A stretch of DNA of 64,000 nucleotides. Source: Phoronis australis (taxonomy: Eukaryota; Animalia; Phoronida). This document shows positions 19,101 to 61,000 of this stretch, one piece after another (position 1 is the first letter of the stretch; every line of letters begins with the position of its first letter). The position numbers and the translations under genes are program-made. Location: the NCBI GenBank assembly GCA_002633005.1, contig NMRA01000474.1, positions 248,001 to 312,000 of the forward strand, read 5' to 3'. The notes beneath the pieces are model-generated. The model was given only the letters and a program-made list of their open reading frames with translations, had not been told where the DNA came from and searched no databases.

Positions 19101-19205
19101 TCCCATTCATAAAAAAAGATTTCAGCGTTTTTTGTCAGTGGAGTTCAAGTTTATCTCGTGAACCGTTACAGGTACCTATGAAATGAGCAAAAATACACCT
19201 TTTAA

Positions 19206-34748: not shown

Positions 34749-37700
34749 TAGTCGGTGGGCCAGATTTTGTAGGGCCTCTAGAAAATGGTTTTTGTGAGTA
34801 CTTTAGGGGGGCAATTTTATTTTGGTGTTTTTTAATTCATTTATTAGAGTGTTTTTAAAATCTAAAAAGTTCCCACATATAATGTTGCATATTTTTGAGA
34901 AATTTGAGTTTGAAGTTACATAATAATCACCAAAGAGCTTAGTAAACTTATATTTGTAAAAACAACAGTTTTGGTGATTTTTTTGTAAAACAAGGAATAT
35001 GGTCCCATCAGTGCCATTGTATTGAACAATATTAAACTCACATTACACGTTTTACTATTGTAAATTAATTGTAAAAAGTGAAATTTAAAAAACGTAAAGA
35101 GACTCCTAGTGGCAAAAAATCAAACTAAGTCTGATTGTTACTAGGAAGTTATTCTGGCATTGTCAGGCAATAAAAATAACACAAAACACTTGAGACTGGG
35201 CAAAATTTGTGCCTCAATGACTAAAACATTGACTAATGGTGTAAAATACAGCTTGTTTGCATAATACACCAGAAATATGTTATAGTACAAAAACAATATA
35301 GTTGAATGATCTCTGTGAATGTGCACAAAGACTGTATGAAAATCAGATTATTCTGACAGCGTTTATCAAGCAGTATGAGACAAATACATGACAATGATCA
35401 AAGTATGTACTTTCTATGACTTACTCAACAAATAAAATTAACTATTTAATACAAAAAGGAAATAACGGGGTAAGGTTGGAGGTCTATTAAGGGTTACTTG
35501 TCAAAGAACTATCCAATGTTATGCAGTCAGTGTTGCTGATGTTACTACAGTTGTCACAGCTGCACATTTCTGTACAGTTTGACCCAGCATTGCAGCGCAA
35601 ACTCAGTTTCCCAGCACACATGTTCTTTTTGCACTTGCAGCGTACTGTCAATGGAGATGCGGTCATTGCTATACATATTAACTGCAAAGCTCCACCGCCA
35701 AGGGGCCAACTATGGTCGATTAGAGAGGGTACAACACTGCACACTGGATTAGCCCGCAGGCAATGAAGGGTCAAACACTAAGTCCTTGTTTGGAGGCGGG
35801 CACTATTTGGGCAAACGTTTGATTCAAAATATGTTATAATGGGCTGTGTTAATTAGAGTCAGCCTGAGCAAGTGAATAGTTGAACACTAGCCTCAATTCA
35901 ATTTCGTATCTCTTAGTCGGGCACAAACTACAACACTGAATAGCTTCAACAATATTTCTTAAGATTGCCTGTCCAAATAACTTCATGCACACCAGCTTTC
36001 TGAAGAACAGCTGTCTTGCTTTAGTTTTGAAAGGCAAATGACATCTCCTTGTGTTAGAAGCTTCGATTCAATGAACTCCAAACAAAACTGTAGAAAAACA
36101 TCTCTGAAAACTGTGAATTCGTCACTCTTCACAATCGTTGTCTTTCTATTTTTTACAGCATGATGATCTGTGGTACTTGGCTTCTAAGACACAAGGTCTT
36201 TATCTTTGAATTTCATTTGCATATTCAGGGCTCTGGACTGAGCTGTTGCTTTCGATACAAGTCCAACTGAAAAAAACCCGAACTGTTAACACTAATTTAA
36301 CATTCAACTATGAGTGAGTTGGCATGCAACTTTTTCAGACGGACTTATCAGGAACTGATCCACCACCAGCCTAACAAATTTACATGCCGTCTGATCTGTC
36401 GCCTAATAATGTTGATCGTCTAATAATTAGATCAGTTGATGCAACTGAAAAGAAATCAGCTGATATACCAGTGCAGTGATTGAAATTGAATTTTTTTAAA
36501 TCAGATGCTCAAACCATAGTCAATCAATTTACACTTAAGGTAATCGACGTTTGACGAAATGGACAGTGGCTTCCATCGTCCTCAAATTTTGACGGTGACG
36601 ATGGCCACTTAGGCACTTTAATTTAATTATCATTGCAGCTACCTAAGTAATTAATGTTTACAAAAAATCGAGACTACGGCAGGGGATGACGGCCACTTGG
36701 GTATGTTGTTTGCAACCATCTACTCCATTTAACATTCTCAAAAATTTTTGACTTAAAGTGCTTTAAAATCACACCCACAGTATAACGCCATAGGATTATC
36801 CCTTAGCGCAAGCAGTGTCGATGTGGCAACTGAATGGAGTGTTCGAAAAACAGGATTGCAGGAGTATTTGTTTAAGCTGGGAACAAATGAAAACATTAAC
36901 AACCTCCTCAGAGGCATCTCACTACGCGGTACTTCTAAACTTATAGGAACATAACTTGCCGAAAAGTATCCGGCATATGGAGTACCTATGGAATGATCAT
37001 CGTCTCTACTGGGTCAGCAGTATTGTCTAAGGCCTAGGCAGCCAAGGGGCTGAACAAGTTAAAAAACAACTGGTGATAATACTGAAACACACATGGAAAA
37101 CACCAAGATGTATTTTTAAAAAACACGTACCTGTTTTTGAAAGCTATACTTCTTTCTCTTTCTTGAAATGTGGCCCATAATGTACTTTTCCTGCTAACAA
37201 ATGATGCACTCATGTTTCAGAATGTTCCTATCTTGTTCAGGTTAATTGGGTGTTTCAGATTTTGGAAGTAATTGATTTTCTTGGGAAATCTTGGATAACA
37301 TCTGTATCACTTTCAGCAACTTCAGCTTTAGTACTACTGTTGGTGCCTTGAAACGTTGCTATGCCGTTCTATGTCCTTTCAATTTTCTGGTCTGACACTT
37401 GGTATTCTAGTCTATAGCACTCAGCAGTATACTGTGTAGGCTACCAGGGCATGCAGCTGTTTTCTGCACAAACGTTTGTGACACCTCTTCTTCTTTTTGA
37501 TCTACTGATCTACAGAATTCCACAGTCAATCCGCTTTCGTCAGGAAGCTTTCCTAAGCTTCTTTAGGCTCTGACATCACAATTTTGTGCTGTTTGATAAA
37601 CCTTGAATTATACAGGCATCACACTCCATGGGAGCAGCCATAATGAAGTAACTAAGCACAATACTATCTGGCTCTCTGATTGGTCAATTCAATAGAAAAG

Positions 37701-37894: not shown

Positions 37895-39765
37895 ACAACC
37901 ACTCTTACTAACTTGAAAAACGGCACAACTAAATACCGGGCATTATAACTGTGTACCTACATACATGTAGGTACGTCTTCCGTTCGTCAAAAACCATGTC
38001 TGGAAGTTTTTGCTTGTTGTGGAGAACATTTTATATTGCGTTTTTTAGAAGCAGATGCACCGCTTTCTATCCGGAAATCCCGATTTCAAATTCATTTATT
38101 GTGCTTTTGTTTCCTAATTTTGACCGTGACAACTTTGCAAGAGCTGTTCAAAATAACACTGTCTCTTTACTATCAATATTTCTCAGAGTACTCTTTTTAT
38201 TAACATGAATAATCGTAAACTGTGTTACAATGCCTCTGCTTTACGGTAAAACACACTACATTCTTGTATCAGGGTCACTAATTCTTCGTTTCTAATACAG
38301 GGTTAATGGTCACGGTATCACACACTATATACATGTATTGGGATCACTAATTCTTACATGTACTTTCTGATAGTGGGTTAATGGTCACTACAGTACTTGC
38401 ATCCAGAGAGGATCATCTTTATGAAAATGTGTACATTGACTATTGAAGGCAGATGCTCCAGAAATATGAACAGGTGTTTACATATCTTTAATACTGTGCA
38501 CGTGCACATGTATTTACACAGAAATACCAATGGTGGATAAGCTGTAGATGACATGTCTCAACTAGATATCCTTAGAATACCAATAGCGACTAAGTCTGAA
38601 AGTGCAAAATAATGGCAACTTAATATATTAACAACACACATAACAAGATATCTTTACACACAAAAACAAGCCACAAAACATAATCCCAATACTCATCTAA
38701 AAGCAACTATGTTCAAAGTTAACATATTTTAGTATTGCATCGCCACCCTAGGTAGCCATCGCAATGACTTACAGTTGACCTATGCATTATGGGTACCCAC
38801 TCAATTATCGCCGCATGTTAAGAGGTTTCCAAGGCAACCCTGCAGACATTGGAAATTAAACAGCAAAAAAGACCAACACAGAGAAGTTCGGAAGTTCTGA
38901 TTTGTTAACATTTTCGTGATTTTTTTTAATCAGCAAAACTCATCTGGTGTTCTGAATTGATGAATGTAAGGTGTTTAAAAGAATATAAATCGTTTCTTTT
39001 CTCCGGTTGTTCTGACTGTACTATGATGGCAGAAATCCACTCACTCCACAAACTGACTTTGACATAGTGATAACGTTAGAGCTGTACATGGTTTGAAATA
39101 TAATTAAGACAATGGGAAGATATAACAGGCAACAACAGAATGAGCTAAAATACTGCAAACAATGTGATTACACCAGGAAAATGCAGTAATAGAACGTTGA
39201 GGCCATTCCAATTCTCAGTTGCCTAACTGTAGATCTACATGTAATGTGACATCATGGTGCGCTCAGAACTCAGTGTTCAGGCCATGTCCATGACCTGCAA
39301 CCAAACAGACAAGCTTCCATTTCCCCTTTTCTCATGCTGGTGATACATAAGTGGTACAATGCGGGGACTTTAGGCTCATCCTCGTCTTAGTAAAGTTTAA
39401 GCCGCCATCCAAATAAAAAACAGTCAACTACATTTGTGTTCGTTTCCTAATAGCACCATTGCAAGTGAAATGATAGCTCGACTGCCATATATGACGTTAC
39501 AAACAACATGTCTATACCTATGTCTATCTCTCAATAACTAAGTCTATACATATGTACATGCACGTGTAAGCTTTTGAATATTTACCAAACCCAGTCTACA
39601 CGGTTACAAACTTATTCGTAATTTTGTAAACCATACAGTATTCTGACTTTCCTCACTTAATTTCGAAAGGTTTGACCAATAGGTAATACACAGGGACTTG
39701 GTTTGACCAATAGGAAATACACAGGTTCTTGGACACTATAACAACTTGTTGTGGTAAAACAAGTT

Positions 39766-42700
39766 TCAACGTGGCCTTCCATTAGGGAAGATTTCGGTGC
39801 ACAATTGGCTATCACTGACGTTGATGTCGTCGTATATGGCCTCCATGCGGATTCCTTGTTCAACGGAACGAACGGCAATTTCATCAAAAGGCACAGTGTG
39901 GATGGGTGGCACATTCGGAAAAATAAATGTTTGCATTACGGCCACGCTGGCTTCATGTTTCTCGTCAGGCACGAAACCGGGACATCCGGAACTACCTTTA
40001 CCAAAGTTTGAACTGGTTTTGTAAAGTGCTCGGCGACCATCACCGAACTTCGGGAATACGTCAAACCCAAATCTAGCTTGAGACCATTGCTTTAATTCGT
40101 CATGCTGAAATAGACAAATGTCAAATATCTCTCCTAGATAATGAAGGAAAATTCTCTGAAAATCAATAAGACAATCAGAGGAAGCAATAGGTAGAAACAA
40201 AGACACTACCTTTGCTATGAACACCAAATCCTCTAGACTTGACATAAAGCTGAAGCCATGTATGACTGATTGTCAAAATGCAGAGCTAATCTTCAATTTG
40301 CGAAACATTATCTGTGTCTTTGTGACCCAGGGTTGCTCTATTGAAATTAGTTCAAGCTGAAACTGCAGGTATGAAAGGGATTGAAATTATAAAACAAACT
40401 ATTGTTCTGTGTAAATTGAGAGTCTGGTGAGGAATTCAATTGTTGATGGCATATCTTGGTCGCAATAGGCCTACCGTTCTGCGAAAGTCTCTTGGCTCCA
40501 TTTGCACAACACTGCAGCTGACATCAGCAACTTTGTTTTTCCCGTCAGGGTGACCAGCAAAGTGAAGTTGTGTTTCTTTGTTAAGCTTCTTAAACCTAGT
40601 AAGAGGAGGTGGTAGCGAATCCAACTTCTTGCAGCCGCTTACTGAGAGAGGAAGATCTGCTTGTAGGTCCAATTTTAAAACGGCCATGTCCAGATCATCG
40701 TTAGAGTACACTAGTGACCCCACACAGCTGCCAGCGGCTGGCCCAAGTCCCAGCAACGATGGTTTGTCGTAATAAAAGAGCACTGCACTGTTTCTGACTG
40801 CAACGAATAAGGTGACACGTGTACTTAAGTACTTTGTAACATGTAATGCTAACATTAACTAACTTGTGAAACATTTGAAAGTAATTTTGGTTTCAGATAA
40901 CAAGTTGAGTGGTTTTAAAAGTTAATTTTGAATGTTTGCTATTTTGGCGATTGATTATGGGACACTTCTTCAAAGTTCACAACGACGTCGTGTGCCAATA
41001 AACAACAAAGACGATTTTAGGAGGGGGGGGGGGGCAGGGGNNNNNNNNNNNNNNNNNNNNNNNNNNNNNNNNNNNNNNNNNNNNNNNNNNNNNNNNNNNN
41101 NNNNNNNNNNNNNNNNNNNNNNNNNNNNNNNNNNNNNNNNNNNNNNNNNNNNNNNNNNNNNNNNNNNNNNNNNNNNNNNNNNNNNNNNNNNNNNNNNNNN
41201 NNNNNNNNNNNNNNNNNNNNNNNNNNNNNNNNNNNNNNNNNNNNNNNNNNNNNNNNNNNNNNNNNNNNNNNNNNNNNNNNNNNNNNNNNNNNNNNNNNNN
41301 NNNNNNNNNNNNNNNNNNNNNNNNNNNNNNNNNNNNNNNNNNNNNNNNNNNNNNNNNNNNNNNNNNNNNNNNNNNNNNNNNNNNNNNNNNNNNNNNNNNN
41401 NNNNNNNNNNNNNNNNNNNNNNNNNNNNNNNNNNNNNNNNNNNNNNNNNNNNNNNNNNNNNNNNNNNNNNNNNNNNNNNNNNNNNNNNNNNNNNNNNNNN
41501 NNNNNNNNNNNNNNNNNNNNNNNNNNNNNNNNNNNNNNNNNNNNNNNNNNNNNNNNNNNNNNNNNNNNNNNNNNNNNNNNNNNNNNNNNNNNNNNNNNNN
41601 NNNNNNNNNNNNNNNNNNNNNNNNNNNNNNNNNNNNNNNNNNNNNNNNNNNNNNNNNNNNNNNNNNNNNNNNNNNNNNNNNNNNNNNNNNNNNNNNNNNN
41701 NNNNNNNNNNNNNNNNNNGGGGGGAAAGAAACTGGCCAATAGTGACGCAATATTTCATGGTGACGAAAGCCGACGCAGAGATAGCACCACAGCCTCATCA
41801 ACAGAAAAAACATAGAATGCCAATCCGCCATAATTGTCTAAACTTCACATATATTAAGCAAAACAACATACCAAAGCGACTATTTAAACCTGGAAGATAT
41901 ATTTTTCACCAAACAGTGTTTAACAGAAAGTGCGGGATTAGTGTTTTGGTGCAGGTTTCCTGTCCATTCCCGGGGTCCCTGGTTTAAATGCCAGAGTTCG
42001 AGTTTTTTCGGGTTGTATAGCCGTTTTGAAGGCACCTGTTTAATACCGAGTTACTGTCTTGACGGAACATCATGTTATTGTTATTAAATGAAATAAGACG
42101 GTCTCTATCACGGCCATACATATGAAAATAACCCGCAGTGACAAGTAATATCCACGAGCCTGATTTGAGGCAATCACGAAGTGTCAGTTATTCTAGACCA
42201 GCCTTAGATGGGATCAATTTCGTAAATGTTAAAGGTGACAAAAAGTTGTTTGTTACAGAAATAGCGAGTTTGTTGCGACGTTAAGGAACAGACGATTTCA
42301 CCTTTTGTCTTGAAAATATAATGACTGAGTAGGGTGTTCTTGTTTCATATCAAAAACAATAAAACATTTATTGATAATTTGAAGAACATGCAAAGTTTTT
42401 CAGAAACAGTAACAGCATGTTCAGGGAAAGCATTTAAACTTTCTTTGGGAATTTATCCGCGTTTTAGTCACGTCAAGCAGGTAATGTATTAAAGGTAGTG
42501 AGTTCGTAAAGTTTGCTTCTGCTCTTACGAAATTCCCGGCATTTTCGTACTATATCAAGCACGTGTTTAACTTAAACTAGGTTCCTAGACTTAAAATAGT
42601 AGTAGGTTTGACAAAGCGTTATTCAACCAACAGTTCACCAATAATGGTGCACGTGACACTTACGATCATCGCCCAGTTGTTCAGCAACGTGCTTATTGGT

Positions 42701-45700
42701 CATGACGTAGTCAGGGCCAACACGGAAACCTGAACCTGTGCCGGTTTGTCCAACAATCAGAGCTACTGATGAAAAGGCTGTTGACAAAGATGTGAGGAAA
42801 TGCGCCGACATCGTCTCTTTGTTCCAATCAAACGCCAGACCGAAACTACACTGGGTTGGCTCTTTTCTGGGACTTTGTACAGGAAAGTAGTCTGAAAGAA
42901 AAGAATTGTCAAATACCCTTTTCCAGTATCATCACTGACCTCTTCAGTTACACCAAAGTGATGTGCATGTCTCCGTTATATTGTGTCACAGGTGTAAATG
43001 TTAAAACCATCGAAACTTGTATTTAAGCTCAGGGAAATGTGCTACATCAAAGTCTTGCCTTCCCAAGTGGGCTTGCTTTACCATGTGAGACAAAAGCGAG
43101 TCAGGAAGTGGCGAGGAGATGATGTATTTGAAACCAATTTAAAAACGCTTTGCCATAAACAGACATCCAAAATCTTGACGAATAAACTGTAAAAAATACG
43201 TGGTGATCAAGTTGGATCCTGTTTTAGTGGCAGGGAACTGTACTTTGAATAGTGTAATTTAGCCTGTTTTTTGTTCGCCGACGACAATTTTACAGTGGAG
43301 CAGCCACGATTTAGAAACCACTGTGGCCTAGATTTAAAAACAAATGCGGTTCTTTTGCAATGCTGGGAAACTCCGGGTGTATTGAGATTGACTGGGAATG
43401 TGTAAGATGCAAATAAATCGACGTGGCGGTAGTTCTTACAGATTACATTGAGCTCCATTTATCTAACCTGTTGTAAGTAATTAGGTGATTGAGAACAGAG
43501 TGAGAAATAATATAATGCATTAGACAAAACGAGCTTTACATGTATTTGGCATGTCGTTGGCGGATTTATTTATCAAACCTGAACTACATGAAGGCATTGG
43601 TAAGCACCGAGTCAGAGCACGTTACGTGCATCTCATAAGTATTGTTTGACCAATGGGCATTCTGCATAGGCAGATTTAGAGGGGGAAAGGGGCAGGGGGC
43701 CCGCCCCCTTGGCTGACGCAGAAAAAATAAAACAGCAAGAGCGTGACGAAATATTGAGTTCATTAAATAACGTGGTAATTAACCTGGGGCTGAAACAACA
43801 TTTTGATGTGTTGAGGGTTCCCCGTTTTTTAGTCCCCCAATTTGATTCTTAGCAGAACCTCCGCTTACCCGAAAGTTTGAGCCCACCCACCCCTGGTTGC
43901 GCGCATGCAATCGTGCTTTGCGCGGTTGCCCCAGACAACATGTTGATATACCAGATCCGCCACTGTTCTGATATGTACAATGAAGCTACATTCACTACAA
44001 CACCATGTATCTGAACTCGATAGACACTCAGTCTTATACAGCTGAATGTTTAGACCTAGAACAGTGAGCAATACCATATTAGAATGCAGCCGGTGAACAA
44101 GCAAAATTGATTCATGTAGCAGTGTTTACCAGTGACACAATATCCCGCTAGATGTAAGTGGTATCACATATTGTATCAACTTATTCAATACACACTAACT
44201 GAATGTATGAAATCAACATCTCATTTAGAGCATTAGGTGAATAGTACCGGCAAAACTATGTGTATGAATCACACCGATAACAATTCATAAATAATCTTAC
44301 ATTCCTACGTGGCCAATAAAAGTCAAATTTGAAGATGATTGAAATTTTCTCTCAGTTAATGATTGTTCTGCTACTAAAGGAAAATGTTATCGCAAAAAAC
44401 GTAGTTCCAAAATAAAAGCGGTATGTTATCACCATAAAGTTAGGTTCTACTATTGCAGGTCAAGAGTTTAAAGCCAGTATTTACGATTATACTTCATATA
44501 CCTGATGGTCTGACGTCAACACCCAGAATTCCCAGTTCATTTTTGTCTCCTTGGTGTGCTTGTATATTTATATCTACATCCCCTTTGGGCACTGTTGCCC
44601 CGGAGGACTCGAAGTAATAAGCAAGATATCTTCCAAGGCTAAAGTGCGGGTCAGCACTGGACCTGTTTTTGGCTTCAGCACCCTCAGCAGAACTCGCACG
44701 TTGGTTTTCCTGTCTTTGCTTCATTTGAATCTATACCCAAGTCAAAAACGACACAACCGCATTAACTAATTTATTTTATAACTGATGATGCTACTCTCTG
44801 CTCTGAACATCTATGTAATTCCTGAGTTAGCAATGGATAAAATGTAAATAAAAAACATGGTATTATTAAAAAATTATTAACAAACATGGTCACTTGACGA
44901 GTATCGTTTTCATCAGGTAAATAATGATTATTTAAAGAGTATTCAATGGTTAACAACACACATCCGTTTGAACCTAATTCTCAAGACAAAACTGACAAGT
45001 TATACTGTACCTCAAGGAACCCCTTTAAGGTTTTAATATTTTCGGCGGCGGTCTTGTCAAAAAACACGCTACATTCTCTTCCACAAACATCATAAGCTGT
45101 TTCGCCTTCCTGAAAATTAACAAAATAGAGGTAAAGAATTAAAAAGTACATATAATTTTTCAGAAAACACGCAAAATGAGCATTTTTTTGATCTCGTGGT
45201 TCTTGGATTCCGGCATGTTTCCGTCTGTATTTGTTCAGGGTCAAAATTTTAACCAAGTTTCAACGTGTGCCTCTTCTTTTCTCAAGAGTTACAGTTAATC
45301 TGGGTATAGGTCTTGACTTGGTGTGGTCGAATAGTGACACTCAGTGTCAGTTGTTTTACACCTGCGTCTGCGTTGCCTCTGTAAATGTTGGAAGAAGTGT
45401 CTCATTTCAAAGAACATTATACACGTGTTAGATGGGGTTCCAGTCGGGAGGTGTACTCCATAGGATTAGCAAACTGAGGTATGAACTTGTTAGATGGGGT
45501 TCCAGTAGAGAGGTGTACTCCATGGGATTAGCAAACTGAGGTATGAACGTGTTAGATGGGGTTCCAGTCGGGAGGTGTACTCCATAGGATTAGCAAACTG
45601 AGGTATGAACTTGCTGACAACTTGTCCAGGACATCTTTCACTGTAGTCTACTGAGATGACATCAAAAGGCAGCATAAACTGACTGGGGTGCGGATGTCAC

Positions 45701-48700
45701 CATGGCGACCACGTGGTAAAAATGCTTTTATTTTTTGTTCAAACATTGACTTTTACCAATATTTGAACTCTCGCGTACATGTATACACGTAGATACTGTG
45801 CATTCCTGAACCTCCGTGGAAAACGGTTGGAAGTTACTTTAGACTTCTGTTGTTTACTGTCAGCTTGCATAATAACAACCTCCACCCAGCAGTAATGACC
45901 AACATCGTCCGATACAAATACATTTTTCATGGAAATTGTTAGGTACGCATCCAAAGTGTCTTCATGCTTCAAGGAAGGCTATTTACCGTGTTAAAGATGC
46001 GTGTTTGGGTAAAGGAAAAGGTATATAATCCTTAGCTATGGGGATTTAAACAGGTAATCAAATTTTCTAATAATTTATAACGCCCTTTTCCTTTATGGTC
46101 AGTACTTGGTTAACTAAATATTCATCACCTAATCAAATGACAACACCTAATGAATTACTGAATGTTGCACACAAAGCATCGTTAAAAGTACATTTCAACC
46201 CTAACAGACGTTAATGTAGAAAAGCGGACATGTTGAATATTAGATAACATTTTTTAAAATAAAGGAAATGGTTAAGTACCGAAAGGATTTGATGATTCTA
46301 TTACGTCAAACATTTGAGACCATAAATTGTAACGCGATTAAATATTTTTATTACAAAACATTTCCCATTGGCGATTGTTCCTGGTTTTACGCGTTTACTA
46401 AGTTTTAAGACTTCCTCATTCTCAGCAGAAAACATTATTTTCAAACTTGCTGAAGAATGATGCTAGGTCCAAGATCCGATAATCTCAAAATTTGAAACCA
46501 ACGAATTGCACTACTCACTACATCGTTGAAATGTTAACAAACTTGTCAAAATTATTACAATTTGGTTTATTTCCAGTTCAAATACAAAAACTAATGTTGA
46601 AAATCATGCCCCTTTCATCTTTTCTGGAGATATCAAAGTTTTTGTCCAAACATTTACTTTTTGGGGTGTTTTGATTTCCGTGGAATCGGTTGTCCAGCCG
46701 ACTTTTTTTACCAAAACGATAGTTGCATCAGGCGTTTGCTTCCTTGAGTCGTAGTAGTACCCGAAATAAGATGCTCTCATGAGAGGTGAACTTAATAAAT
46801 TATCGTCAGATTAAAATGTTTAAGAAATTTGGACCTTTGTAATTATGTCATCAGGTATCTCGTCTAAATCCACGTCACGCATAGTGGTCTTTAAGTTTAA
46901 CAAACTTTCTCATTCCAATCTACGACATAACGCGCTTTTAACCAAGTCCACCTATGAAGTCTTCGCAACATTTTTTTCCAAAAATAAATTACATTATTTT
47001 TTGAATCGGTGTTTTGTGTAAAACTATATCGATAGTCTTGTCATTGGGGATTTGTCTAATTCATATAATACATATATAGTATCTTTTCGAGTCCTATCAA
47101 GGCTAAACGTGGTTTTCACAGCCTCAGTCTTGGTTGTTTGCTGCAGCATGACTTGAGATTTATACAGGTTGGATAGATCGCAGATATATTTATATACATG
47201 TATTTCAAAGTGATCAACTATTGCTGTCGTTGTCGCTGTAGTTTCTCAAATGCGTATCCACATTTTCCATGAGGTGCAACGGTTCCTTTGTGTTTTGTCG
47301 TTTCCTATAAATTGTCCACGTTTTAGCTTACCTAGCAAACAAAATCAGAGCTCAAGGGTCTTTTCGTTATCTATTAATTATAGTTTCCCGCTTCAAAGCC
47401 ATGTCAGAAACCCTATTGTTAAGGCTAAATGTCCGTCGCTTTACATTTATCAAATGTGTAAGAACAGATTTATGCACACGTTTCCGTGGTCCTGTCAAAC
47501 GTTGTTAAAAGAAGTTGCCTATATATAGAAGATCCACTCACCAGAGTAATGCATTTTAAAAGGCTCCACAGTCTCACAAACACTGTACCATAGCTACAGT
47601 GTAACATACATGTGCAACGGATCTCGTTGTATACATCCGGTCAAAGCTAAAGGCGTCTCTCCAATGGCAGAAATGTATTTTCGGAACGATGTTAGAATTG
47701 TTCTTTGGACAGCAAAAAAATGGAAACAGATTAGGGATACTTGCACTCTGTAGTTGTAGTTCATTTCCAATATCTCAGATGAATTGATAAATAATCGAAC
47801 AAAATATCTATTAACTACTGCTCACAAAACTGAACAATATGGTCCAAATGCCGAGTTCTTTCAATCTCCAGTTTTGTCGTTTTCTGATAAGGTTCCACAT
47901 CACTTATTTAGGTTGTCATTATGCTGTTTCATAAAGGAGATGTTTGGACTGGTACGTTTGACATGGGTAATTTCTGATAACGTGGCCACCCACGCACATT
48001 AAGCGAAGACCAATTAAAATTTGCCAAACAGGCACTACGAAAAAATAAGAACGATGAGAAAATGTGTTAGCTTTTGAACAAACTGATGAATTACATTCTC
48101 AAGCTCAAGTTTTTGCAACTAACGGATAAAACTGATTGACACAACACGAAGATGTGATTTGAACGAAAATAAAATATGGGGTGATATAGAAAGCGTGTTG
48201 TGTTTCGGACAACTGAATACACCAACAGTCAGAAACAAATCAGATCGCATATTTATACACGTTTTATAAGAATCTGAAACAGACCCTGGATTTAGAGTGG
48301 ATCAGAAACGATCACTGTGCGCAAATTAGTCACACAGCGCTCTGCTTTTTCTGGGGTCTAACTTATGCAGACTTCTGGAACAGCGAAAACCGCACTTGTC
48401 TTTTCAAAAGGCTGGACTTTGACTAACTCACGCCCAACATTACTCCACCACAGAATATATCAAACAAAACATGGCAGGAACTTATTACACAGTAGTGCAA
48501 TTGCATTACAAACAAACCAAAAAATTACACGACTTTGAAATTTGGTTTTTAAAACAGTCGCTTTTTAAAGCAACCCTGACTAAAAAGTACTTGTAGGAAA
48601 ATCAAAATGTGTGCCTGTGTTGGGCGCCTTCCTCCGTGGTTGGTCTGTTTTTAGTTTGTGTACCGATTGTACGATCAGACGAGCAGCCTTGGTTTCGCTG

Positions 48701-51700
48701 CGTGTTCTGGGAAGGTACTTGCATTGAAGAAGTGACTCTATGTAACTCCAGTAAAGAGGTAGATCAGTTTTAATGAGATATTTATTATGAGTGAACAATT
48801 CCTCGAAATCAATATTCATTTAAAACACATTTATTGCAGCATTAACTAAACTTGGAGTACAACACTCTTGAGATACCTTGTTTACGGCAGTCACGTCGCA
48901 GCTGCCATTATGGACCAGCAGTTCCACGACTGCTGCCTGTCCTGTCTGGGAAGCTAGATGTACGGGTGTGTTTCCATCCTACAGTAAACGAACAAATATG
49001 ATAGAATGCTGGTCAGCATCATACATAGCAAAGTGGGTGCGTCAACAGAGAGTCACGCTTAACACCTTTCAGAACTTCGCCTTCAGTTGCATACTTACTG
49101 TATGAAGTGGGTGACTCAACAGAGCACGACTACAACTGACATTTAAACTCAGACAAAAATGAGCGCAATTTCCTAAATGCTGATCTGTTGTAGTCACGCG
49201 ACTGAAAAGATGATTTTAAATATCACAATTTGATGTTATATATTACAACAGAGCCACGATCATTTAGTGAGTGCTATGGTAATGCAAGTAAAGAACAAGT
49301 GCTCAATGTACAACTCCAGGTGAAGTGAAAACTGTTTCTAATAACATAATGTCACGAGCACGTCACGTCACGTGCGCGTCACTTCACGTGCCGTGAATTC
49401 AACGTTTACAAACAAAATTACAATTTGTGATTATTTAATTAAAACACCCAATAATTCAACCTCGTCACGTATTGTGTGTTCATCAACCTGTGTGTCGTTA
49501 ATTACCTGAGTACGGACATCCACTGTAGCGTTGTGTTCCACAAGACACTTCACTATCTGTGTATAACCACACCCTGCTGCACAGTGCAGCGGTGTCCGGC
49601 CCACCTATGTAATATATAATGGAGATGTGTGAACGAACGATCAACGTTTAGAGCAAATTAACAAACACGGGGGAAAGTGAACTTGTAAGGTGACATAAAT
49701 GAAACATTACTGACCTCTCTAAGACGCAACAATACGTGTAATGATTTCAACAGGGAAATGTTGAGTTTAAGAACAAAACAACAGAGCGTGTTCAGTGTTC
49801 CGTCTCGTTACACGCTGATAACACACAGCAAGTAATTGTGCGCTGTAAAGTGTTGGACAATCAAAATAACGTAGAAAATATATCTGAAACTAAATGAGGC
49901 GATCCAGATCGTCTGAAGGAAATTATTGTTTGACGAAATGTAGAATATATATAGGTAAATAAAACAACAATAATGAATCAACTGAAATGTTCGGATGCAG
50001 CTTTGACAGTTCTCTGTTGGAAAGCAGACGACATTTATTTTGACATTGTTTAAAGACATAAAATTGTGAAAAATATCAACAAAATTTGTTCTTCAATAGT
50101 TTTAATCATCTCTTGTGTAAACAACTAATTCAACCAAACAACCTGTGTGTCATTAATTACCTGAGTACGGACATCCACTGTAGCGTTGTGTTCCACAAGA
50201 CACTTCACTGTCTGTGTATGACCACACCGTGCTGCCCAGTGCAGCGGTGTCCAGCCCCTCTATGTAATATATAATGGAGATGTGTGAATGGACGATCAAC
50301 GTTTAGAGCAAACTAACATACACGGGGGAAAGTGAACTTGTAAGGTGACATAAATGACACATTACTGACCTCTCTAAGACGCTACAATACTTGTAATGAT
50401 TTCAACAGGGAAATGTTGAGTTTAAGAGCAAAACAACAGAGCCTGTTCTGTGTTCCCTGTCTCGTTACAGGCCGGTAACACACAGCAAGTAATTGTGCGC
50501 TGTAAAGTGTTGGACAATCAAAATAACGTAGAAAATAAATCTGAAACTAAATGAGGCGATCCAGATCGACTGAAGAAAACTATTGTTTGACGAAATGTAG
50601 AATATATATAGGTAAATAAAACAACAATAATGGATCAACTGAAATGTTCAGGTGCAGCTTTGGCAGTTCTCTGTTGGAAAGCAGACGATATTTATTTTGA
50701 CATTGTTTAAAGACATAAAATTGTGAAAAATATCAACAAAATTTGTTCTTCAATAGTTTTAATCATCTCTTGTGTAAACAACTAGTTCAACTAAACAACC
50801 TGTGTGTCATTAATTACCTGATCACGGATATCCACTGTAGCGTTGTGTTCCACAAGACACTTCACTATCTGTGTATGACCACTCCATGCTGCACTGTGCA
50901 GCGGTGTGAAGCCCCACACCTATGTAATATATAATGGAGACGTGTGAATGGACGATCAACGTTTAGAGCAAACTAACATACACGGGGCAAAGTAAACTTG
51001 TAAGGTGACATAAATGAAACATTACTGACCCCTCTAAGACGCTACAATACTTGTAATGATCACTCAAGTTTTACAGGTGATTTTAAAACCTTGAAGTAAG
51101 AACAGAACATGGTGTAGAAGACAACTGCCAGAAATTACTGAGCGCCGCCATAACTTCACAGTGACCCCTCCATGTTGTGTTCATACACCGGTTTAATGGC
51201 TTCCTGTTCAATATAAAGTTGTAATGTTGAATGGACGCTTACCATTAAGAATAGAAAAATATCAACGTTAAGTCGCCAAATATATTGTTGACACAATTCA
51301 AACCTCACTGTTTCTTAAGATGCATGTACCGGGTACAGATTGAAAATACATGTCGAAATCTTGAGAAATAAAAAGTGTATATACACACAACATGTTTAGT
51401 TAAACTTCAGATAGTTTACAGCTTTGTAACAAAGATATCACTGTCTTAATTATAAAATCGTCTCAAGTAGTTTCTATTACCCCGTCTTGCTTGTTGACGA
51501 TAGCGCCTGCTTCACACAAAACACGCGCCACCTCTGTATGTCCCAGCCCTGCTGCACTGTGTAGTGTTGTCCAGCCCTGCAGAAACAATGAACAAGTTAT
51601 AGCAAACTTCACAATCATTAACTTCACCGTGAATCTTAATTACTCATCATGGAAACGTTGAAATAACACATTTGCACACAAAATTACTAAATCTACTCTC

Positions 51701-51773
51701 TGCTTACCACATAATATATCAGTTGTCGTTGGAATGGATCATCAATTTTAGAGAACAAGGTTACGTCGCTCAT
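39766..51773 (-). CDS. Ankyrin-repeat protein with C-terminal FAM111-like trypsin-fold serine protease, about 590 aa
   Basis: Exons: 51773-51708 (tentative start), ANK exons 51576-51481, 50919-50818, 50259-50161, 49604-49506, 48978-48877, cap 45109-45011, linker 44730-44502, protease 42891-42664, 40797-40475, 40104-39766. All junctions are GT-AG, in phase and free of stops. Triad motifs: GSGFRVGPDYVMTNKHV (His), DLDMAVLKL (Asp), FGKGSSGCP (Ser). It also has AGHPDG and the FAM111-type tail RSVEQGIRMEAIYDDI...EIF. Confidence 0.85.
41041..41718. other. Assembly gap (N run)
   Basis: 678 Ns flanked by G-runs, inside a protease-gene intron. Confidence 0.99.
43665..43965. mobile_element. hAT-like MITE in a protease-gene intron
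   Basis: G-rich left end (gcagatttagaggggg...ggggcccgcccc) and GATCCGCCACTG right end. Confidence 0.45.
45426..45612. repeat. ~62-bp tandem repeat x3
   Basis: Three near-identical copies of tgttagatggggttccagtcgggaggtgtactccataggattagcaaactgaggtatgaac. Confidence 0.9.
49485..51060. repeat. ~655-bp tandem segmental repeat (about 2.4 copies), each unit carrying one ankyrin exon
   Basis: aacctgtgtgtc.ttaattacctga starts at about 49486, 50140 and 50797, and the intervening sequence is near-identical. Confidence 0.95.
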
Positions 51774-54700
51774 GTAGAACGTTTGTTAGTTTCAGTAATA
51801 ATCCTCAGATTAAAGACATGACATGTTCTTTAAAAATATGGACACTTTTATAAAAGTCCGACTTACGACTGGTTGTAGCTAAGACAAGCTATCACTGTTA
51901 TTGTCATTAACGTGACCTTGATATTTAAACTTAAAAATTTATCATTTTAAGAGATCAATTTTTCGAGAGATCAAGGCAAAAGTATTGTTAGTGTATATGA
52001 AAACTGCAATTATATGGGTAAAGCTTACATGGTCGTCTGGTTTTCTTTAATTAGTAGGTCTACCCCAAACCAATCCCTGCTGGAGGCATGAATTGAAAAA
52101 CATGATCAAACTAATTTGTAAAGTCCAGTTTCACTTTTTTCCTGAGGTCCAAAATAATTTCTAACAAATTAAAGTCAGGAACAAACAGAAATAGAAGGAA
52201 GAGAGAAAATCAATATAGGGTAAATTCGCCATTGGCATAGGATATTATCAAAACGCAACTGAAGTATGAAGTTTTTCATGGAAAAAAATGCAGGGCAATC
52301 CTTGGTAAAGGGTCTGTTACTGGTCAGGAACTAAACACATTTCAACTTATAAATGGCATCCAACAAAATCCAAGCAGGCAAAACGTTCAGGAAAAGAATA
52401 AAGAGTTCTCTACAAATTAAACGCACGTTGAAACACATTTCACCAAAACCATTCTTCTTGTCAAGATTGCTGTTCAGAAATCCAATCAATCATTTGTCTC
52501 CCACAAATTGTTCTGCTATTCTTGAGACGACGTGACAGCGGTCTGGACAGGCGAAGCGTTGCTTTTAAAAAGAGCGCTTTTCCAGACAGTTTTCGCGTGT
52601 ACACGCGATAAATTGATACATTAGTCAGTTCTTGAATATATTTAAAGGGGCATTTAATAATCGCAAGGAACTAATTAAAGAGAGCGTGACTAACCAAATA
52701 AAAGGTGTTGCAATTTGTTTTTTTTAACTCTCGTTTGACCCTTTTACAATCAGACGTTCAAAATGGTGTTTCGGCGTTTATACAACTTTCTATATTGCAA
52801 CTAAAAATTTGAGATTTCTGCTGATTTACTTTATTCAACATTTCGCTTCAGAGTGGTGCGTAAAGAGGGAAATGTCAAAAATATATGGTCTCAGAGAATA
52901 TGCAACGCTACAATCACGGCTGATTTGATGACAAGCAAACAAGGAATACAAAAATTCAACAACTTGAACAAAAGCCGCAATTTCAGGTTGCGTCTCAAGT
53001 AGCCGAATGCCATTTGGATCCGACGGCCACTTGGACAAAATATAGAAAGAAATACGGATAGATAATGTGTACAATTGGAAAATATTGCGCGGTAGAACAA
53101 TAGCAGTCACCACAAAAAATACAACATGTTGCACTATCAAACAATTGAATACTAGAAAAATATCTGAATAAATCTTTAAAATTCCATTCTTTATATAAAA
53201 TCACCCAGTAGTACAATGCGTCACGTGTACACCAGTCCATCTATTAATAGAACAAAATCTGGAAATCAATAATTAGACGTACACTGGCACGTCAAAACTG
53301 TACTTCATTTCACTAAAATTTAAAAACTCGATACACGTTTGAGCAATAAAAATGTGGCCTGATTAAAATCAAGCAAGCGTCATTGCTATCATTTTAATTG
53401 TTTTGAGAAATATTTATTAAGCTCGCCGTATATTAGTGACGTTTAGAACAGAGCATCGAGATCAAATAACAAAATTAGGCCTACATGTAGGTCGCTTTCG
53501 CTTACATAACAAGTGCAATTCCCAGACACGACTGTTCTTTGGTGACCTGCTCTAAGGTAATATTCACTCGTAGTGATTAATTTCATAATCCACTTTCATC
53601 AACTGAATGCCCGTTAATCTTTTAAATACGGCAGCGCAACCATGACAAGAATGTTTCTATTTTAAAAATAAAGTTACATCGTTACCGTTAACTAACTGCT
53701 ACTATTGAATTCAGTCTCCACACGTCAGAATGATGCAATAATACTACTCTACACACCCAAATTCAATTGAAAGCTCAGGTTTTGACCTCTCGTGTCAAGT
53801 CAAACTGTGCGACCTGAAATTTCAAGCATAATGCGTGCTGAGTTTGTGTCTCTACACTTCTACCGACTGATACCTTGGAAATATGAAAAAACTCATGTGG
53901 GTCCGGCCATTAGTTAGTTGTTGCCAAAGCAAGTTCGAAAGAACACTAACACATGCTGTGAACAGACATGTATCGCGTGAACATGAAATAGTGCAGATTC
54001 GATCTTTAAATCGTTTCGTCGACTAGTATTTTTGACTACTTTTGAAAATTTTCGGATGCGCCTAAGAAAGTTCTGCACCCCGGAAGAACAATTTAAAAAA
54101 CGGTACAAAACAGCAATGTTTCCAATAATTCTGAAACGATCAACGTAACTAGCGTTGTGGTGAAAAACATATCAATTTTTCTTGTAAAATGTCCAAATTA
54201 TCGAATTAAAATATCCCAGGTCCTATCGCATTTTTAAAACTGCTTGGTCAAGTTATTTACGCGCACGGTCGTGGTCCCACCAGAGAATCATTATTCGGAA
54301 TATTCGCGTACAGCAAGCGATTTTTTTTGCTCCCCGGGTACATTGTAGTCAGCCGACTACAAATACGTCACTGATCTTTACTGGTGTAAAACTCGCTTGG
54401 AAGGAATACTGTTCCGAATGAAACATCAGCCAAAGGAAATTAGAATTGCGGGTGTCTAAAAAGCTGTAAGTATTAACGATATCCAGGCATTTACGCTTTG
54501 CTGGTGTGCGACGCACAAAAATATAGTATTACAAAAGTTCTTGCTACTGCAATCAATTCTCAGTTCGGCAATCATTCACAACAACGGCAACACTCAAATT
54601 TGCGCCAAATTCCATATCTTTGAAATTTTTCGGAACAAGCGCGCACTGCTCTACTAATCGCAACCCATAACATTTGAAAAACTTCAATAAAACGCCAACA

Positions 54701-57700
54701 GCTCTGGCAAGCGCCCAACCGTTGTTTGACTCACTAAAATTGGTTTTCAAAACTGCATAATGCGAAGTAACCCTAGCAACATGCATGCTGGGGTCATGTG
54801 TCGTTTTGAGTCTACCTATTTTGTGGAATAATTATGTGACACGTACAGTGTATTTCTCGTGCTCAGGAAACAAATCTAATTACCCGATAATGGAAACCCG
54901 CACGGAATGGTTACTATTTGGAAGCTAGTTATGATATGAAAAACTAATGTCTGAAAACGTAAACAGTATAAGCCACATAAATGTTGTAGTGATATTTGAA
55001 CTGAATTGGTCCTGATGATCGATCCGTTGGTTTGACAATTGTTGTCATTTTAAGAAATTGAACCAAAAGTAATACAAATTCTGTCCCAAATCGATAACGT
55101 TAAATGCACAATACGTCATTCGGCTAGGAAAAATTTAAGCGGTTTTGTTTATCGACAGGATTTTTCAATCGTGTGAGTCGCAAAATTTGAAGAGCAAACA
55201 AATTGAAGAAGCTTGCACTCATAGTTACAGGGTATATCTTTGCTTTTTAACGACTTTGATGACAGTCATACCGTAGATCAATAACAAAAGAGTCCTGGAT
55301 ATTTTTTCAATGAATATTTTGTTCAAGTTTACGGTCAATACTTGCTTACCGGAAAGCACGTGGCTGTTTTAGAGCACGGATTCAATTTTCACGTAGGCTT
55401 GCGACAAGTACTTAGAACTTGCAAAAGGATGTGTCATAGCATGGCAGATGTATAAAGCCCTTACGGGAACGTCAGGCAGCACAGATTTGATTTGCATTGC
55501 AACATGCGCATCCAGGGCTTTTCAATAGCTGTAGAGAAAAACAATTTCATAAAACATTAAGAATTCAATCTCGCGGCCTAAAATTCGGGAATACCTACAT
55601 CAGAGGAAAAGGCAATATTTAAATATTTTCTCCATTGGCTAGAATCAATTTGGCGCATACAATTTGTGGGTAATTTTTGCGAGCTGGAATTCGTGTAGGG
55701 AGCTAGAAATTTGGTTTCAAAGGTAGCAAAATGCAATTGTAAGGCGAGTTATCATTATCTTTGCTTCTACCATGACCAAAATGTTACGTACTGTCTAAGA
55801 ATTTGAACAATTGCTTGGATAAAAAAAATTGAACAAATGATACACCAAAAACAAGCAAAAACAAGCAAAAACAATGCTTTTACTCATGCCCTAAAGCAAA
55901 TAACCCAGAATATTAGACTTTGACCTAATACTAGAGTATCAAAACATAGTTTTTATTCCTTTACTGTGAAGCATCTACACACCGTGTATGGTTGTGGTAT
56001 CTGTGAATGAGATCTAACATGAATTTACCCCACAAGACTTGATCACTGTGGATTAACAAAAGTTTTCCTTATCCAAGTACGTTTTAGTTAGTTTTTTAAA
56101 TAAATGCGATAATGGTTATGTTCAATCCACCCATATCATATACAAAACTGACGCCACCTTTCTAAGCAGAATCAGGTGAAGAACGGACACTGTGAAAAAA
56201 GACACACCAACTTTTGTATTAACAAAACATACAACCATAACACTACTGGGTACCGGTAGCAGCATTTTAGACCAACAAGCAGTTGCTTTATCAATACTGC
56301 AAATAATATCATATCACCTTGAGCACTGAATTTTAAAAGTGCACTAATTCGCACTATAACGTAACTTACGGTCCGTAGGCGCTACGTTTAAATGCCAAAA
56401 GGCGGTTGGCTGCGCTTACGTGCGCTAACACCCAACTACAGCACTAAATTAGACACAGGGTGCCTTGTCTGCATCTGTGGTCAATTGGAAAAAAATCAGA
56501 AAAAAACATGTAGGATACAAAGCTTTGAAATTTCTTACAGTAATTCAAATCACCTTCTAATAGTGTTTCCAAAGTTCACAACATAAAAATGAATCATTTT
56601 TCACAGTCCGATTTGTACCAGTAGTCCAAGCGTATCTTGTTGAATAAATAATACATTGTATTATTATCTCATATAAAATGAGGCATGTATTTTCCCCAAT
56701 AAAACTCGTTCAGCAACAACACCTGAAAAACTTAGGTCTATTAATTTAAGAGAGAACTGACAATTATCAACTTATCACGATACTCTTTTTAGGAATAACT
56801 CAAGATAAAGTTTGACTGATTCTCTGAGTCCCTTGTTTTGTTAGCTTACAGTGCTCCGTTAACAAAAGTTCCAATACATTGGAATCCATTGTATGCAAGA
56901 TTTCACATTTCCAAAACATCTCCTACTTCCTACACAATTATTTCCCGGTCCATTTTTTTCGAACTTCATGTGATTTTGGAAGGACAGTTGCCGATGGGGT
57001 TGTCTACGCACCTGTTGAACCCCCTTGGCTACAGTAATGACCCTTAGTAGGCTCATCTCATACTAGTCCTTGTTCGACGCACAACTAACATTGGTCAGCA
57101 AGATCGCACAAATTAATGAAGCCTAGTAAGCTATATCAAGCTTTCACTGAACGCTATACAGCACATTATGCTCCACGAACTCAGTTTGCGTACGCACACG
57201 TTGAAACAAATTTTACCTAAAATAACATCTTTTTCTGTTCAAGATCTCTATCCAGTCAATGATGTCGACACAAATGCATACCCTAAATTTTTAATGTACG
57301 CAGTTCAGTGAATTGAAACGGAATGACCAATCGCAATTTCAAAAAAGCAGCGCTTTGCTGCCAGGCATCGATACATTGGCATTCATCGATCACGAAGAAA
57401 TTCTAATAATTATTTGGGTGCACAGTTACGATAGGGCCTTTTTAAAAGTATTTTCTAATATGCAGGACCTAAGTTTCAGACTGAAGCTGAAAATAATTAT
57501 TCATCTGAAGTACCGTAATATGAATTACATGCATGTATAGTGTACTACGAATTTCACAAAAATGCTAGAAAATCCCAGCAATTAAAAATGACGTCATTGT
57601 GAGCACCAGATTCAGGATGAGCGAATCTAAGGGACCTCGGTCACGCAAGCGCAGTGGCCTTGAAGAAAGATTTGTTGACAGATTTTTTATAAATTACCTT

Positions 57701-58064
57701 CAGGTTTATCTCAGGATATGTTCAAATTCTGTCTGATATATTTTTTATCAGTTAGACGGAAATCCCGAAAAATTTTCCAAACGTCTTAGCGGACTGTGCC
57801 GTTACACCAAAAGGAATGCCGATAAGTTTCTTATTTTACATTTATTTGACGGTCACGTTTGCAAGTGTCTATGGTTCATACACACTGCTCGAAATTTCAA
57901 CTATATAAGCACGATGTTATTACTTTTTCCAAGCGTAATATTTGCACAGTTGTTATTTGAAACGCGCCGGTGAAACGTATATTTGCCTCTTATTATTTTA
58001 ACGAACAATTCCCCAAGTGGTGCGCGTTAAAACCAGCATTCAATATATTAACGAGATAAATTAA

Positions 58065-61000
58065 CCCTTTCATCAAATCAGTTGGTCTATATCATGTCAT
58101 GTACTTGAAACTGGTTAATTTTGGATGGGTTTTTCAATATCTTCAAAATTGGTTGCATTCTGATTTTTTCGTATTTGCTCGACCTATGTTAATATGCTTG
58201 TGCAATGATATTATATCGTGGTTGCAGAATGGTTTGAGACAACTGTTGTGTCATTGCTTTACCAGAGTGATAATAAAATCTTACTTAAATGACAGACAGA
58301 GCATCTACTATGCTGAAGAATGGGATACCGTAGCAGGAGGTCGCGTCACCTAGGGGGAACTCTTATAACGAAACTGCATTTTAGGAATGAACCAGTTGTG
58401 CATGAAAGAAATTGGAAATTAATACGCCCAGATCTTGAATGCAGCAAACCGGAACACTATTATCTACGACAACAAAAGTGATTGCACCGACTATGTAACG
58501 AATAGAATAAGTAAAATAACATAAAAGATGTGCCTCGATCCGCCGAACACTCAGTTATTCAACGAAATTCCACTAACAGGAACCTATCCTACTATTTGAA
58601 ACTTGGATTATGGTACCCAATTAGCAAACAATTGAGAATCACTGCTGTGCTGTAACACTTCAAAATTCTTTCTTTAAATTGGGCATTGAATGAAATGTAC
58701 AATTGCATCACTTTCTATAAATTGCAATAAATTACCAACTTCGCCTTGACTTGATGAATGAGAAGAGTACCGTCTCTCACCTGTACGAAACTGTTCACGG
58801 GATACGATAATAATATGGAAAATGGGTATAATGTTAGATAATCAATCCGCGTTTGACACAGTTTCACAAGACCCCTTCTTGTACAAAGTTTTCTCTTATC
58901 CAATATCGGACACTCTGCACACACTCCGCACTTTATACTTGTAAATTAACTCTATCCATCCAATCGGGTAGTAGGACTAGACAGTGTGTTTTCAAAACCC
59001 TCACTCCCCGTCTTTGTTTACGTAGGGGTATCGAAAGCTGATGTCCTATTTCTACTCTTCATCAATCATGACAGACATGAGCTCCAAAACCATCCATGAC
59101 ATAATCAATGGTAAAACGTCTGATACAGCCGAATTTTATACAAATCTCAAAAACATCCCAAAAGCCTTTCTTTCCAACTACAGTTGAAACTTGGTTCCAC
59201 TCAGGGCTCGTAATAAGCACATGGAAGCTTCAAGGCTGAGATAAAGTGTTGATCTTACATTTTCTAGATGCCTCCATTTCAAACTAACACAATCTTTATC
59301 TGAATCCGCATGGTGAAATTATTCCCCAAAACATTTGTAAAGAAATCTAGTCATGATAGTTGATGATGAAATGTCATTTGAACCACAGTGTCAAATCCGT
59401 GTGCAAAAAAATCAAATTCTAATCAACCTACTGAAATTCGTTCATGCAAGTTTCAAATCGTTTGGTACCTACAAACGATTTGAACATTTTGACTATGGTG
59501 AGATAATCCACCAAGTCGTGTAGATAGTGCGAGACCTTTGCTTGAGCTACACAAAGTATCATAAAAAGCTTGCAATAACCAATGCTGGTGTCATGAAAGG
59601 GTCTAACACAGTAAGTGGTCCAAAATGTCATTGTGTTGAAAGGTATTAGCAGCTCAAGTTCTTAACAAAGTAAAGAATGTATTACGAAATACAAAAGTCA
59701 AAAACATCACTCGATCTAGGTACAGTTCAAGAACGCTAGTACATGCTATGCCCTTCGCGAGATTACGCCGTGTATTTTAAACAAGACCATGTGAATTTGG
59801 ACAGTTTTTCCAACCCGCAAAACAGCTACACTGAGAACTCTACTAGGGTTTCTCTTGTCGCACATTTTTCTTATTTCCACCATCTTACAGTCGAGCAACT
59901 AGTAAATCCACAATTACCAAGGCATAGATGCAGGTCACATCCTCTCATAAAAATGATATGCCGTAATTAAAATTTCATTTTCACAAATGCTTTTGCGAAA
60001 AGAATAAAATTATTCTTCCTACAGTCGTATACCGCCGTACAATAACAAAGGAAATCTGTCAACAGATTTAGGTCAAGATTATTGCTAAACTCTGAAAAAT
60101 TCAGACACACTTTTCAAAATATGTCTTCCCGGTGCGCCTGCGGATCTGTCCAAATTGGTCTGTTTCTAATGCTTTCGTAGATCGTTTGCGTGATCCTTGT
60201 TGCGGATCCTGGAGACGGTCGACGATATAACAGATAAAATTAATAGTATTCCACGGCAGATTGGTAAATACATCTTGTTAGTAACTGATTCTCATGACTA
60301 GCCCAATGGCGTCTATTAAGTGCTACTTAGTCAATTTCTCTATAGTATGTAACCTGTCTTATAATTGCTGTTCGTAGGACTCGGTCATGATTTCATTGTA
60401 TTTTTCTCACCGACATACGTGTGCTGTTAAGGCAAGTTAAGAAAAAACGTCTGTTTTATATCTAAACTTCCGTAGCTATACATGTACTTGTATGTGAACA
60501 TTTTGTTATTACTGTTTTGTATTGTTACCACGATTTTGACATGTCGCTTTGGTTAACAGTTTACAGTGTTCATACATGTATATACTATTCAACATAAAAT
60601 TAGGAAGGCAATGCCAATCGTGATGAAGTTCTTAAGACAATGGATGTGTAGAATTGTTTTTAACAAGGTGCATTTCAAGTCAATGATGATCAGACAAGTG
60701 TTCATGTGTAAATACTCACCGACCGACCCAGCGCTTGGTCCACATCCCAACCACGGTTTACATACTCCAGTAGAGTAGAACAGTCACCTTTTTTGGCGGC
60801 TGTTCTAACCTGAAAATAATAACAAATAAATTTTAAATCGAATGGTGTACATTCATTACCATTACGAACTCAATTTTACAAAAAAGTGCTCCTTAGATGA
60901 TATGAACATTGAGGGACTAGGGTCGGGGTTGTTCCTGGGTCTTGATAATGCAGACCATATGAAATACTCTTCGCAAATTTTGGCTCTTGTTCATATTAAA

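Follow-up and report, generated by a model that had tools for sequence, protein, structure and literature searches.

A Phoronis australis gene that splices exon-encoded ankyrin repeats to a predicted trypsin-clan protease: a candidate sensor-effector protein

The phoronid Phoronis australis carries, on contig NMRA01000474.1 of assembly GCA_002633005.1, an expressed gene in which an array of ankyrin repeats is fused to a predicted serine protease of the trypsin clan. The gene lies on the minus strand of the window, that is, the whole 64,000-nucleotide stretch analysed (positions 248,001 to 312,000 of the contig, here numbered from its first letter). The fusion is real, and the observations on which the rest is built are the arrangement of its exons, splicing on the sense strand that runs from ankyrin exon 5 into the protease, duplication of an exon-plus-intron cassette within the array, and a bias of substitutions towards amino acid replacement. 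We propose, with a little better than even confidence, that a diversifying ankyrin recognition module gates or aims an intracellular predicted protease in a conflict between host and invader.

The gene model, obtained by checking splice sites against a three-frame reading, comprises 11 exons (Table 1). All ten introns are GT–AG with matching phases, and the frame runs through 601 residues without an internal stop. In the encoded protein an N-cap-like repeat precedes five Pfam ankyrin repeats, which are followed by a cap, a linker and finally a predicted trypsin-clan protease. Exons 1–7 are all phase 0/0 and 30–34 codons long, each encoding one repeat or cap; introns are kilobase-sized and the window has a G+C content of about 38%. 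Five of the 12 pieces scanned exceed the cut-off of the Pfam Ank profile PF00023 (29.3–43.4 bits vs 21.1), which identifies the product as an ankyrin repeat protein. The maximum Kyte–Doolittle mean over 19 residues is 1.43, so that the 601-residue model, outside which the start-codon exon lies, holds no hydrophobic or transmembrane segment.

RNA data were available from one run of assembled contigs (X1) and three stranded raw runs, which share the species label, come from two studies and derive from other animals; they were placed on 38800–58700 at a likeness of at least 88%. On the sense strand, each of the three raw runs as well as the X1 contigs shows five joints, which lead from the last ankyrin exon as far as protease exon 3. 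Ankyrin exon 5 is joined to the cap (48876/7 to 45108/9; 9, 7 and 13 reads in the three raw runs), the cap to the linker (45011 to 44730; 16, 9 and 14 reads), the linker to protease exon 1 (44502 to 42891; 8, 14 and 13 reads), protease exon 1 to exon 2 (42664 to 40797; 20, 26 and 86 reads) and exon 2 to exon 3 (40475 to 40104; 21, 10 and 12 reads), the last joint fixing the acceptor at 40104. No one RNA record covers the whole transcript, and the joints link the ankyrin exon to the catalytic exons as a chain. A 678-N gap falls within an intron that the RNA skips whole. The commonest class of reads is 90–95% alike to the window, which indicates that the reads come from alleles or paralogs; sampled words flagged no run as the RNA source, with X1 holding 0.08 of the words. 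An earlier note, made from the letters alone, had described an ankyrin–cap–linker–protease protein with His, Asp and Ser motifs, and this architecture is borne out by the five PF00023 exons, the stop-free GT–AG frame and the RNA joints. The presence of the five joints in every raw run also argues against the ankyrin and protease exons belonging to separate genes and against a lack of expression.

The N-terminus proposed in the earlier note is probably wrong. Its first exon, 51773–51708, has no Pfam match and no RNA joint among the 15 joints listed of 112, and the RNA favours an exon beyond the range of that note. Two contig records have a loose end at the acceptor 51577, and this end corresponds to the end of a 90-nt exon at 60809–60720, its single match (0 of 100 shuffles gave one). 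The exon lies outside the region covered by the RNA comparison, so the joint from 60720 to 51576 is deduced from the loose end, and on this sequence evidence 60809–60720 is probably the real upstream exon. It begins with an acceptor, placing the start codon further upstream, where neither a start codon nor a start exon was found in the sequence read; the lack of a signal peptide reported in the earlier note accordingly applies to the known part of the protein.

Within the array, the cassettes carrying ankyrin exons 2–4 provide three closely related copies for comparison. Between the two full cassette introns, 24 of 556 sites are different. Compared in pairs, the exons show 11, 12 and 7 differences in 99 nt, of which 0, 0.67 and 0, respectively, are synonymous; codons 18–29 are identical in all three exons. 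A minimum of 16 changes separates the copies, at most one of them silent, and 10 of the 16 fall at ankyrin positions 3, 5, 10 and 13 in the usual consensus numbering. Ankyrin positions 2, 3, 5, 10, 13 and 33 were randomised in a designed library, in which they form the binding surface (PMC4308713). The occurrence of 10 of 16 changes in these 6 of 33 codons has a binomial p of 1.1e-4. At the rate of the intron shared by the three copies (11 changes in 141 nt), 1.4 changes would be expected in the 18 nt of the six binding codons, as opposed to the 10 seen (Poisson p 2.3e-6); counted as variable columns, the comparison is 8 of 18 vs 11 of 141 (Fisher p 2e-4).

The transcripts extend this variation. 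RNA joints that go back by about 99 nt indicate more tandem copies of the same type of ankyrin exon, and by hand decoding all ten ankyrin–ankyrin junctions among the 12 rows listed of 179 give residue combinations absent from the window. Position 2/3 pairs decoded by hand in the transcript variants include Glu/Trp, Glu/Leu, Gln/Glu, Lys/Val and Lys/Asp, and divergent versions of the cap, the end of the linker and a protease loop are also present among the reads. These variants may be alleles, paralogs, a consequence of pooled animals or somatic change. The suggestion in the earlier note that variable repeats sense a ligand and control proteolysis gains from the replacement excess at binding positions and from the junction variants; the N-terminus it used is probably not the real one.

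The same differences could be produced by a more ordinary protein, in which the array is a substrate adaptor or inhibitory lid of a regulatory protease and varies through young duplicates, loose constraint and gene conversion. Expression of the gene in all three raw RNA runs would fit such a function, as would the high entropy that positions 2, 3, 5, 10 and 13 naturally show in ankyrins (PMC4308713) and the roles in DNA replication that the protease FAM111A has in addition to its antiviral one (PMC9798293); the comparison, too, is of three copies only. However, the pace of change in the binding codons is about seven times that of the adjacent intron, an excess that loose constraint by itself does not produce, and many more junction variants exist among the transcripts, so that we regard this explanation as unlikely. 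Diversification suits any arms race, and the array might alternatively recognise self or non-self partners of the same species, in allorecognition or in gamete or selfish-element conflict, with the protease as output. Variable repeat sensors reportedly serve fungal allorecognition, but the absence of a transmembrane segment from the 601-residue model speaks against this version, to which we give little credence.

The protease domain presents His373, Asp418 and Ser528 in the order of the chymotrypsin fold, as assigned by motif, with Ser528 in a Gly-x-Ser-Gly motif and a Gly at 526. Matches to the Pfam profile Trypsin_2 are weak, collinear and below threshold in two of the three exons (profile 1–20 at E 0.016 for the His exon, 41–96 at E 0.19 for the Asp exon). 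The His exon also gives weak matches to a PADLOC trypsin-like profile (E 5.8e-4) and to MarP (E 6.8e-4), and its ten phmmer matches in the PDB at E up to 10 are all His-motif stretches of bacterial or viral proteases, at E of at least 0.27; the Asp and Ser exons had no phmmer match in the PDB at E up to 10. In the Atlas, the Asp exon lies near trypsin clusters (best 0.91) and the Ser exon near serine-protease and trypsin clusters (0.92–0.93); these trypsin-clan clusters are mostly bacterial, have low shared-feature counts, and none is named FAM111. An AlphaFold model of the last exon alone reached a pLDDT of 37 and was left out of fold comparison. Several weak and concordant signals thus point to the trypsin clan, and they do not extend to a family assignment.

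Other assignments were considered and set aside. A match of the His exon to Ntox25, which stays below the cut-off (E 5.7e-4), was rejected as partial and due to chance. An HtrA/Deg (S1C) protease is disfavoured by a TIGR02037 score of 12.6 bits for one exon, to be read against a whole-protein cut-off of 416, and by the lack of a PDZ row in the Pfam scan. Rice NAL1 also has a trypsin-fold protease, but with triad spacings of 57 and 94 residues (PMC12012508) as compared with 45 and 110 here; Pfam at E up to 1 gave no Nal1 row, and the PDB yielded no NAL1 chain, in exon-wise searches of low power.

The earlier note had called the protease FAM111-like. FAM111A and FAM111B likewise place a C-terminal His-Asp-Ser domain of Trypsin_2 type behind a non-catalytic N-terminal module. 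In FAM111A the landmarks are Phe334-Gly335, His385, Asp439 and Ser541 (PMC9798293), and the protease domain spans 335–611 (PMC10920703). The Phe-Gly pair stands 51 residues ahead of the His in both proteins, a likeness of position only; the fragment that starts with the Gly of this pair and runs to the end has 279 residues here vs 277 in FAM111A, and the Ser is followed by 73 vs 70. The equal Phe-Gly to His spacing may hide compensating insertions and deletions. The two proteins differ in the intervals from His to Asp (45 here vs 54) and from Asp to Ser (110 vs 102), and an ankyrin array takes the place of the PIP box and of the ubiquitin-like domains, of which vertebrate members have two. FAM111 was absent from the results of the exon-wise PDB search at E up to 10 and from the Pfam and Atlas matches, with queries whose splitting lowers power. 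The label therefore holds for the position of Phe-Gly and the length of the domain and finds no counterpart in PDB, Pfam or Atlas, where matches are to generic trypsin-clan proteins: we consider the protease FAM111-like in its predicted layout, with family membership unproven.

Based on the above data, we propose the following course of action for the ankyrin–protease protein. Each phase-0 exon would be a swappable repeat, and because the exons hold one repeat each in phase 0, unequal crossing-over or conversion would change repeat number and specificity. The array would bind a foreign protein or one altered by an invader. In FAM111A, peptidase activity needs dimerisation through an N-terminal helix whereas self-cleavage does not (PMC10920703); by analogy, ligand binding might cluster the protein or free the protease from the array. 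The protease would then cut the bound target or a host executioner; it might also cleave its own linker near Phe322-Gly323. As a result the invader would be restricted or the cell would die; apoptosis is triggered when the activity of FAM111A is raised (PMC7534640).

Several results weigh against this proposal of an invader-sensing receptor. Framework codons change at the intron rate (6 changes vs 6.3 expected), and all six changes are replacements; the data thus do not demonstrate purifying selection on the framework. The excess over the whole exon is non-significant for one of the three pairs (p 0.30), and the shortage of silent changes is marginal (p 0.012–0.07). The substitution test compares three copies, in which some codons have changed at more than one base and substitutions are non-independent; patchy gene conversion from paralogs, importing codons while introns are homogenised, could inflate the excess. 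Single-exon searches found no homolog in which conservation could be tested. The remaining points concern the enzyme itself. In FAM111A a Phe-accepting S1 pocket is formed by Phe538, His556 and Glu573 (PMC10920703), and in a register set by eye the present protein has Lys for Phe538 and Gln for His556, which means that it may not share the specificity of FAM111A for Phe, the self-cleavage of FAM111A or even its activity. In addition, sense depth within the intron 50920–51480 (38, 55 and 161 at 51060 in the three raw runs) is at least as high as in the 3' untranslated region (31, 21 and 77 at 39715); the full fusion may therefore be missing from many transcripts. One contig runs on from the exon through this intron, in which translation would reach a stop after five codons. 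The intronic reads may reflect slow splicing or retention, a short protease-less product, or paralog sequence.

These altered S1-lining residues and deep intronic reads are also what would be expected if the protease were weak or inactive and served as a scaffold, or as bait for the protease inhibitors of pathogens, with many transcripts giving ankyrin products that lack the protease. Viral proteins are reported to inhibit FAM111A, and the protease loops vary among reads (decoded by hand from loose ends). On the other hand, the His, the Asp, the Ser and the Gly at the oxyanion position are all there and the protease exons are spliced in every raw run, and we consider an inert protease improbable.

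Three further known kinds of system resemble the gene in part. Candidate immune receptors of the brown alga Ectocarpus, of the ROCO type with leucine-rich repeats (LRR) and of the NB-ARC type with tetratricopeptide repeats (TPR), likewise have one repeat per exon and diversifying change in the repeat domain; their repeat number is altered by local recombination, and diversifying selection acts on the repeats (PMC3341825). By that standard, the present gene shows one repeat per same-phase exon (seven of phase 0/0) and, in three copies, an excess of change at binding codons. It differs in using ankyrin instead of LRR or TPR and a protease instead of a GTPase or NB-ARC domain. Silent or reversed intronic repeat exons are a further difference, for a six-frame profile search of this window for silent or inverted spare repeat exons gave only the six input exons, also missing the divergent exon 60809–60720. 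Designed ankyrin libraries share the near-constant framework, the N- and C-cap-like repeats and the concentration of variation at 3, 5, 10 and 13 (PMC4308713; PMC8683736), whereas the array described here is natural, exon-encoded and joined to a predicted enzyme. Prokaryotic conflict systems place a trypsin-like peptidase effector beside adaptor or repeat domains; the phoronid gene, in contrast, is a spliced animal gene with neither a STAND NTPase nor a Death-like adaptor, and the available portions of the account of those systems contain no ankyrin–trypsin fusion (PMC8195603).

A wider reading is that the gene belongs to an undescribed animal family of intracellular receptors, a natural counterpart of a designed ankyrin library whose exon cassettes are duplicated and recombined, thereby varying the binding face, and in which every variant is wired directly, with no nucleotide switch of the NLR type, to a divergent FAM111-related protease that carries out the response. 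We hold this to be possible but rather doubtful. Among variable-repeat receptors, NTPase, GTPase and kinase outputs are known. If the reading were true, animal innate immunity would include a simpler sensor-effector design, in which repeats that diversify at their binding face are fused directly to a protease, and this would suggest that the FAM111-type protease is an old defence effector whose targeting modules can be exchanged. Such a fusion would also be relevant to a question raised in a review of FAM111, namely which function the proteases of this family had before a PIP box and ubiquitin-like domains evolved; coral and lancelet have FAM111 proteins that lack ubiquitin-like domains, and the review suggests that host restriction is perhaps the older role (PMC9798293).

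All protein homolog queries were single exons, and their blanks are therefore weak evidence. Word-seeded searches of longer proteins confirmed 0 of 36 candidates for the last exon and 0 of 44 for the His exon; an ankyrin exon was matched by 4 of 5 candidates, all ankyrin-only proteins devoid of a protease domain. The sole phmmer match of the last exon over 1.84 billion representatives, an HYR-repeat protein, is spurious. Metagenome scans confirmed none of 264 stretches, and a second scan gave no matches. No paper on an animal ankyrin–FAM111 or ankyrin–trypsin fusion was found among the top matches listed in the literature searched, a body from which subscription papers were mostly absent, and automatic database annotations may already list the architecture.

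Table 1 Features of the ankyrin–protease gene, in window coordinates (aa, amino acids; E, E-value)
Feature	Position	Strand	Evidence
Likely upstream coding exon, 30 aa, phase 0/0, N-cap-like by eye	60720..60809	-	AG..GT ends; unique match to RNA loose end at 51577; no Pfam match
Putative first exon of the earlier note; could be an alternative first exon	51708..51773	-	ATG..GT frame
Ankyrin repeat exon 1, 32 aa, phase 0/0	51481..51576	-	PF00023 E 9.3e-7
Ankyrin repeat exon 2, 34 aa, cassette copy A	50818..50919	-	PF00023 E 3.9e-10
Ankyrin repeat exon 3, 33 aa, cassette copy B	50161..50259	-	PF00023 E 2.8e-11
Ankyrin repeat exon 4, 33 aa, cassette copy C	49506..49604	-	PF00023 E 9.4e-10
Tandem exon-plus-intron cassettes, unit ~655 bp, ankyrin exons 2–4	49484..51060	.	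Self-BLAST 94.3% over 922 nt
Ankyrin repeat exon 5, 34 aa	48877..48978	-	PF00023 E 3.3e-9; RNA joint to cap exon
Degenerate C-cap-like exon, 33 aa	45011..45109	-	By eye; no Pfam match; RNA joints both sides
Linker exon, 76 aa	44502..44730	-	RNA joints both sides; Pfam rows weak, unrelated only
Protease exon 1: Phe322-Gly323, putative N-terminal helix, His373 motif	42664..42891	-	Weak trypsin profile matches; RNA joints
Protease exon 2: Asp418 motif	40475..40797	-	Weak Trypsin_2 match; Atlas trypsin clusters; RNA joints
Protease exon 3: Gly-x-Ser-Gly with Ser528, C-terminal extension, stop	39766..40104	-	RNA-fixed acceptor; Atlas serine-protease and trypsin clusters
3' untranslated region, reaching at least 38800	38800..39765	-	Sense-strand depth 15–48 in 38800–39463

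Repeats of other kinds accompany the gene. An element of about 120 bp is found within the cassette introns (49864–49988 and 50521–50634) and, 86% identical and inverted, at 24999–25125; the depth of antisense RNA increases in the bins of this element, which is possibly a small mobile repeat. A 62-bp tandem repeat is present in three copies at 45426–45613, within the intron that separates the cap exon from ankyrin exon 5. Just past the stop, at 39669–39732, lies a 31-bp tandem repeat that has extra copies in transcripts (joints that go back by 62, with 17, 13 and 46 reads). Candidate poly(A) signals are located at 38930 and 38492.

Elsewhere in the window, a spliced endonuclease G-like gene occupies 1620–5142 on the minus strand, four of its pieces matching PF01223 (E 2e-9 to 2e-11). 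Plus-strand exons at about 12487–13680 resemble, by eye, the general transcription factor TFIIB, and broken minus-strand frames at 27019–28342 a decayed retrotransposon pol; no Pfam match was obtained for the latter or for the pieces of the former that were scanned. Sub-threshold matches were given by 26558–26770 on the plus strand (zf-MYND, E 8.5e-4) and 35490–35777 on the minus strand (CXC, E 0.043), both weak. Long nested inverted repeats, 79–87% identical, pair 19201–19924 with 21646–22326 and 20440–20868 with 21201–21647.

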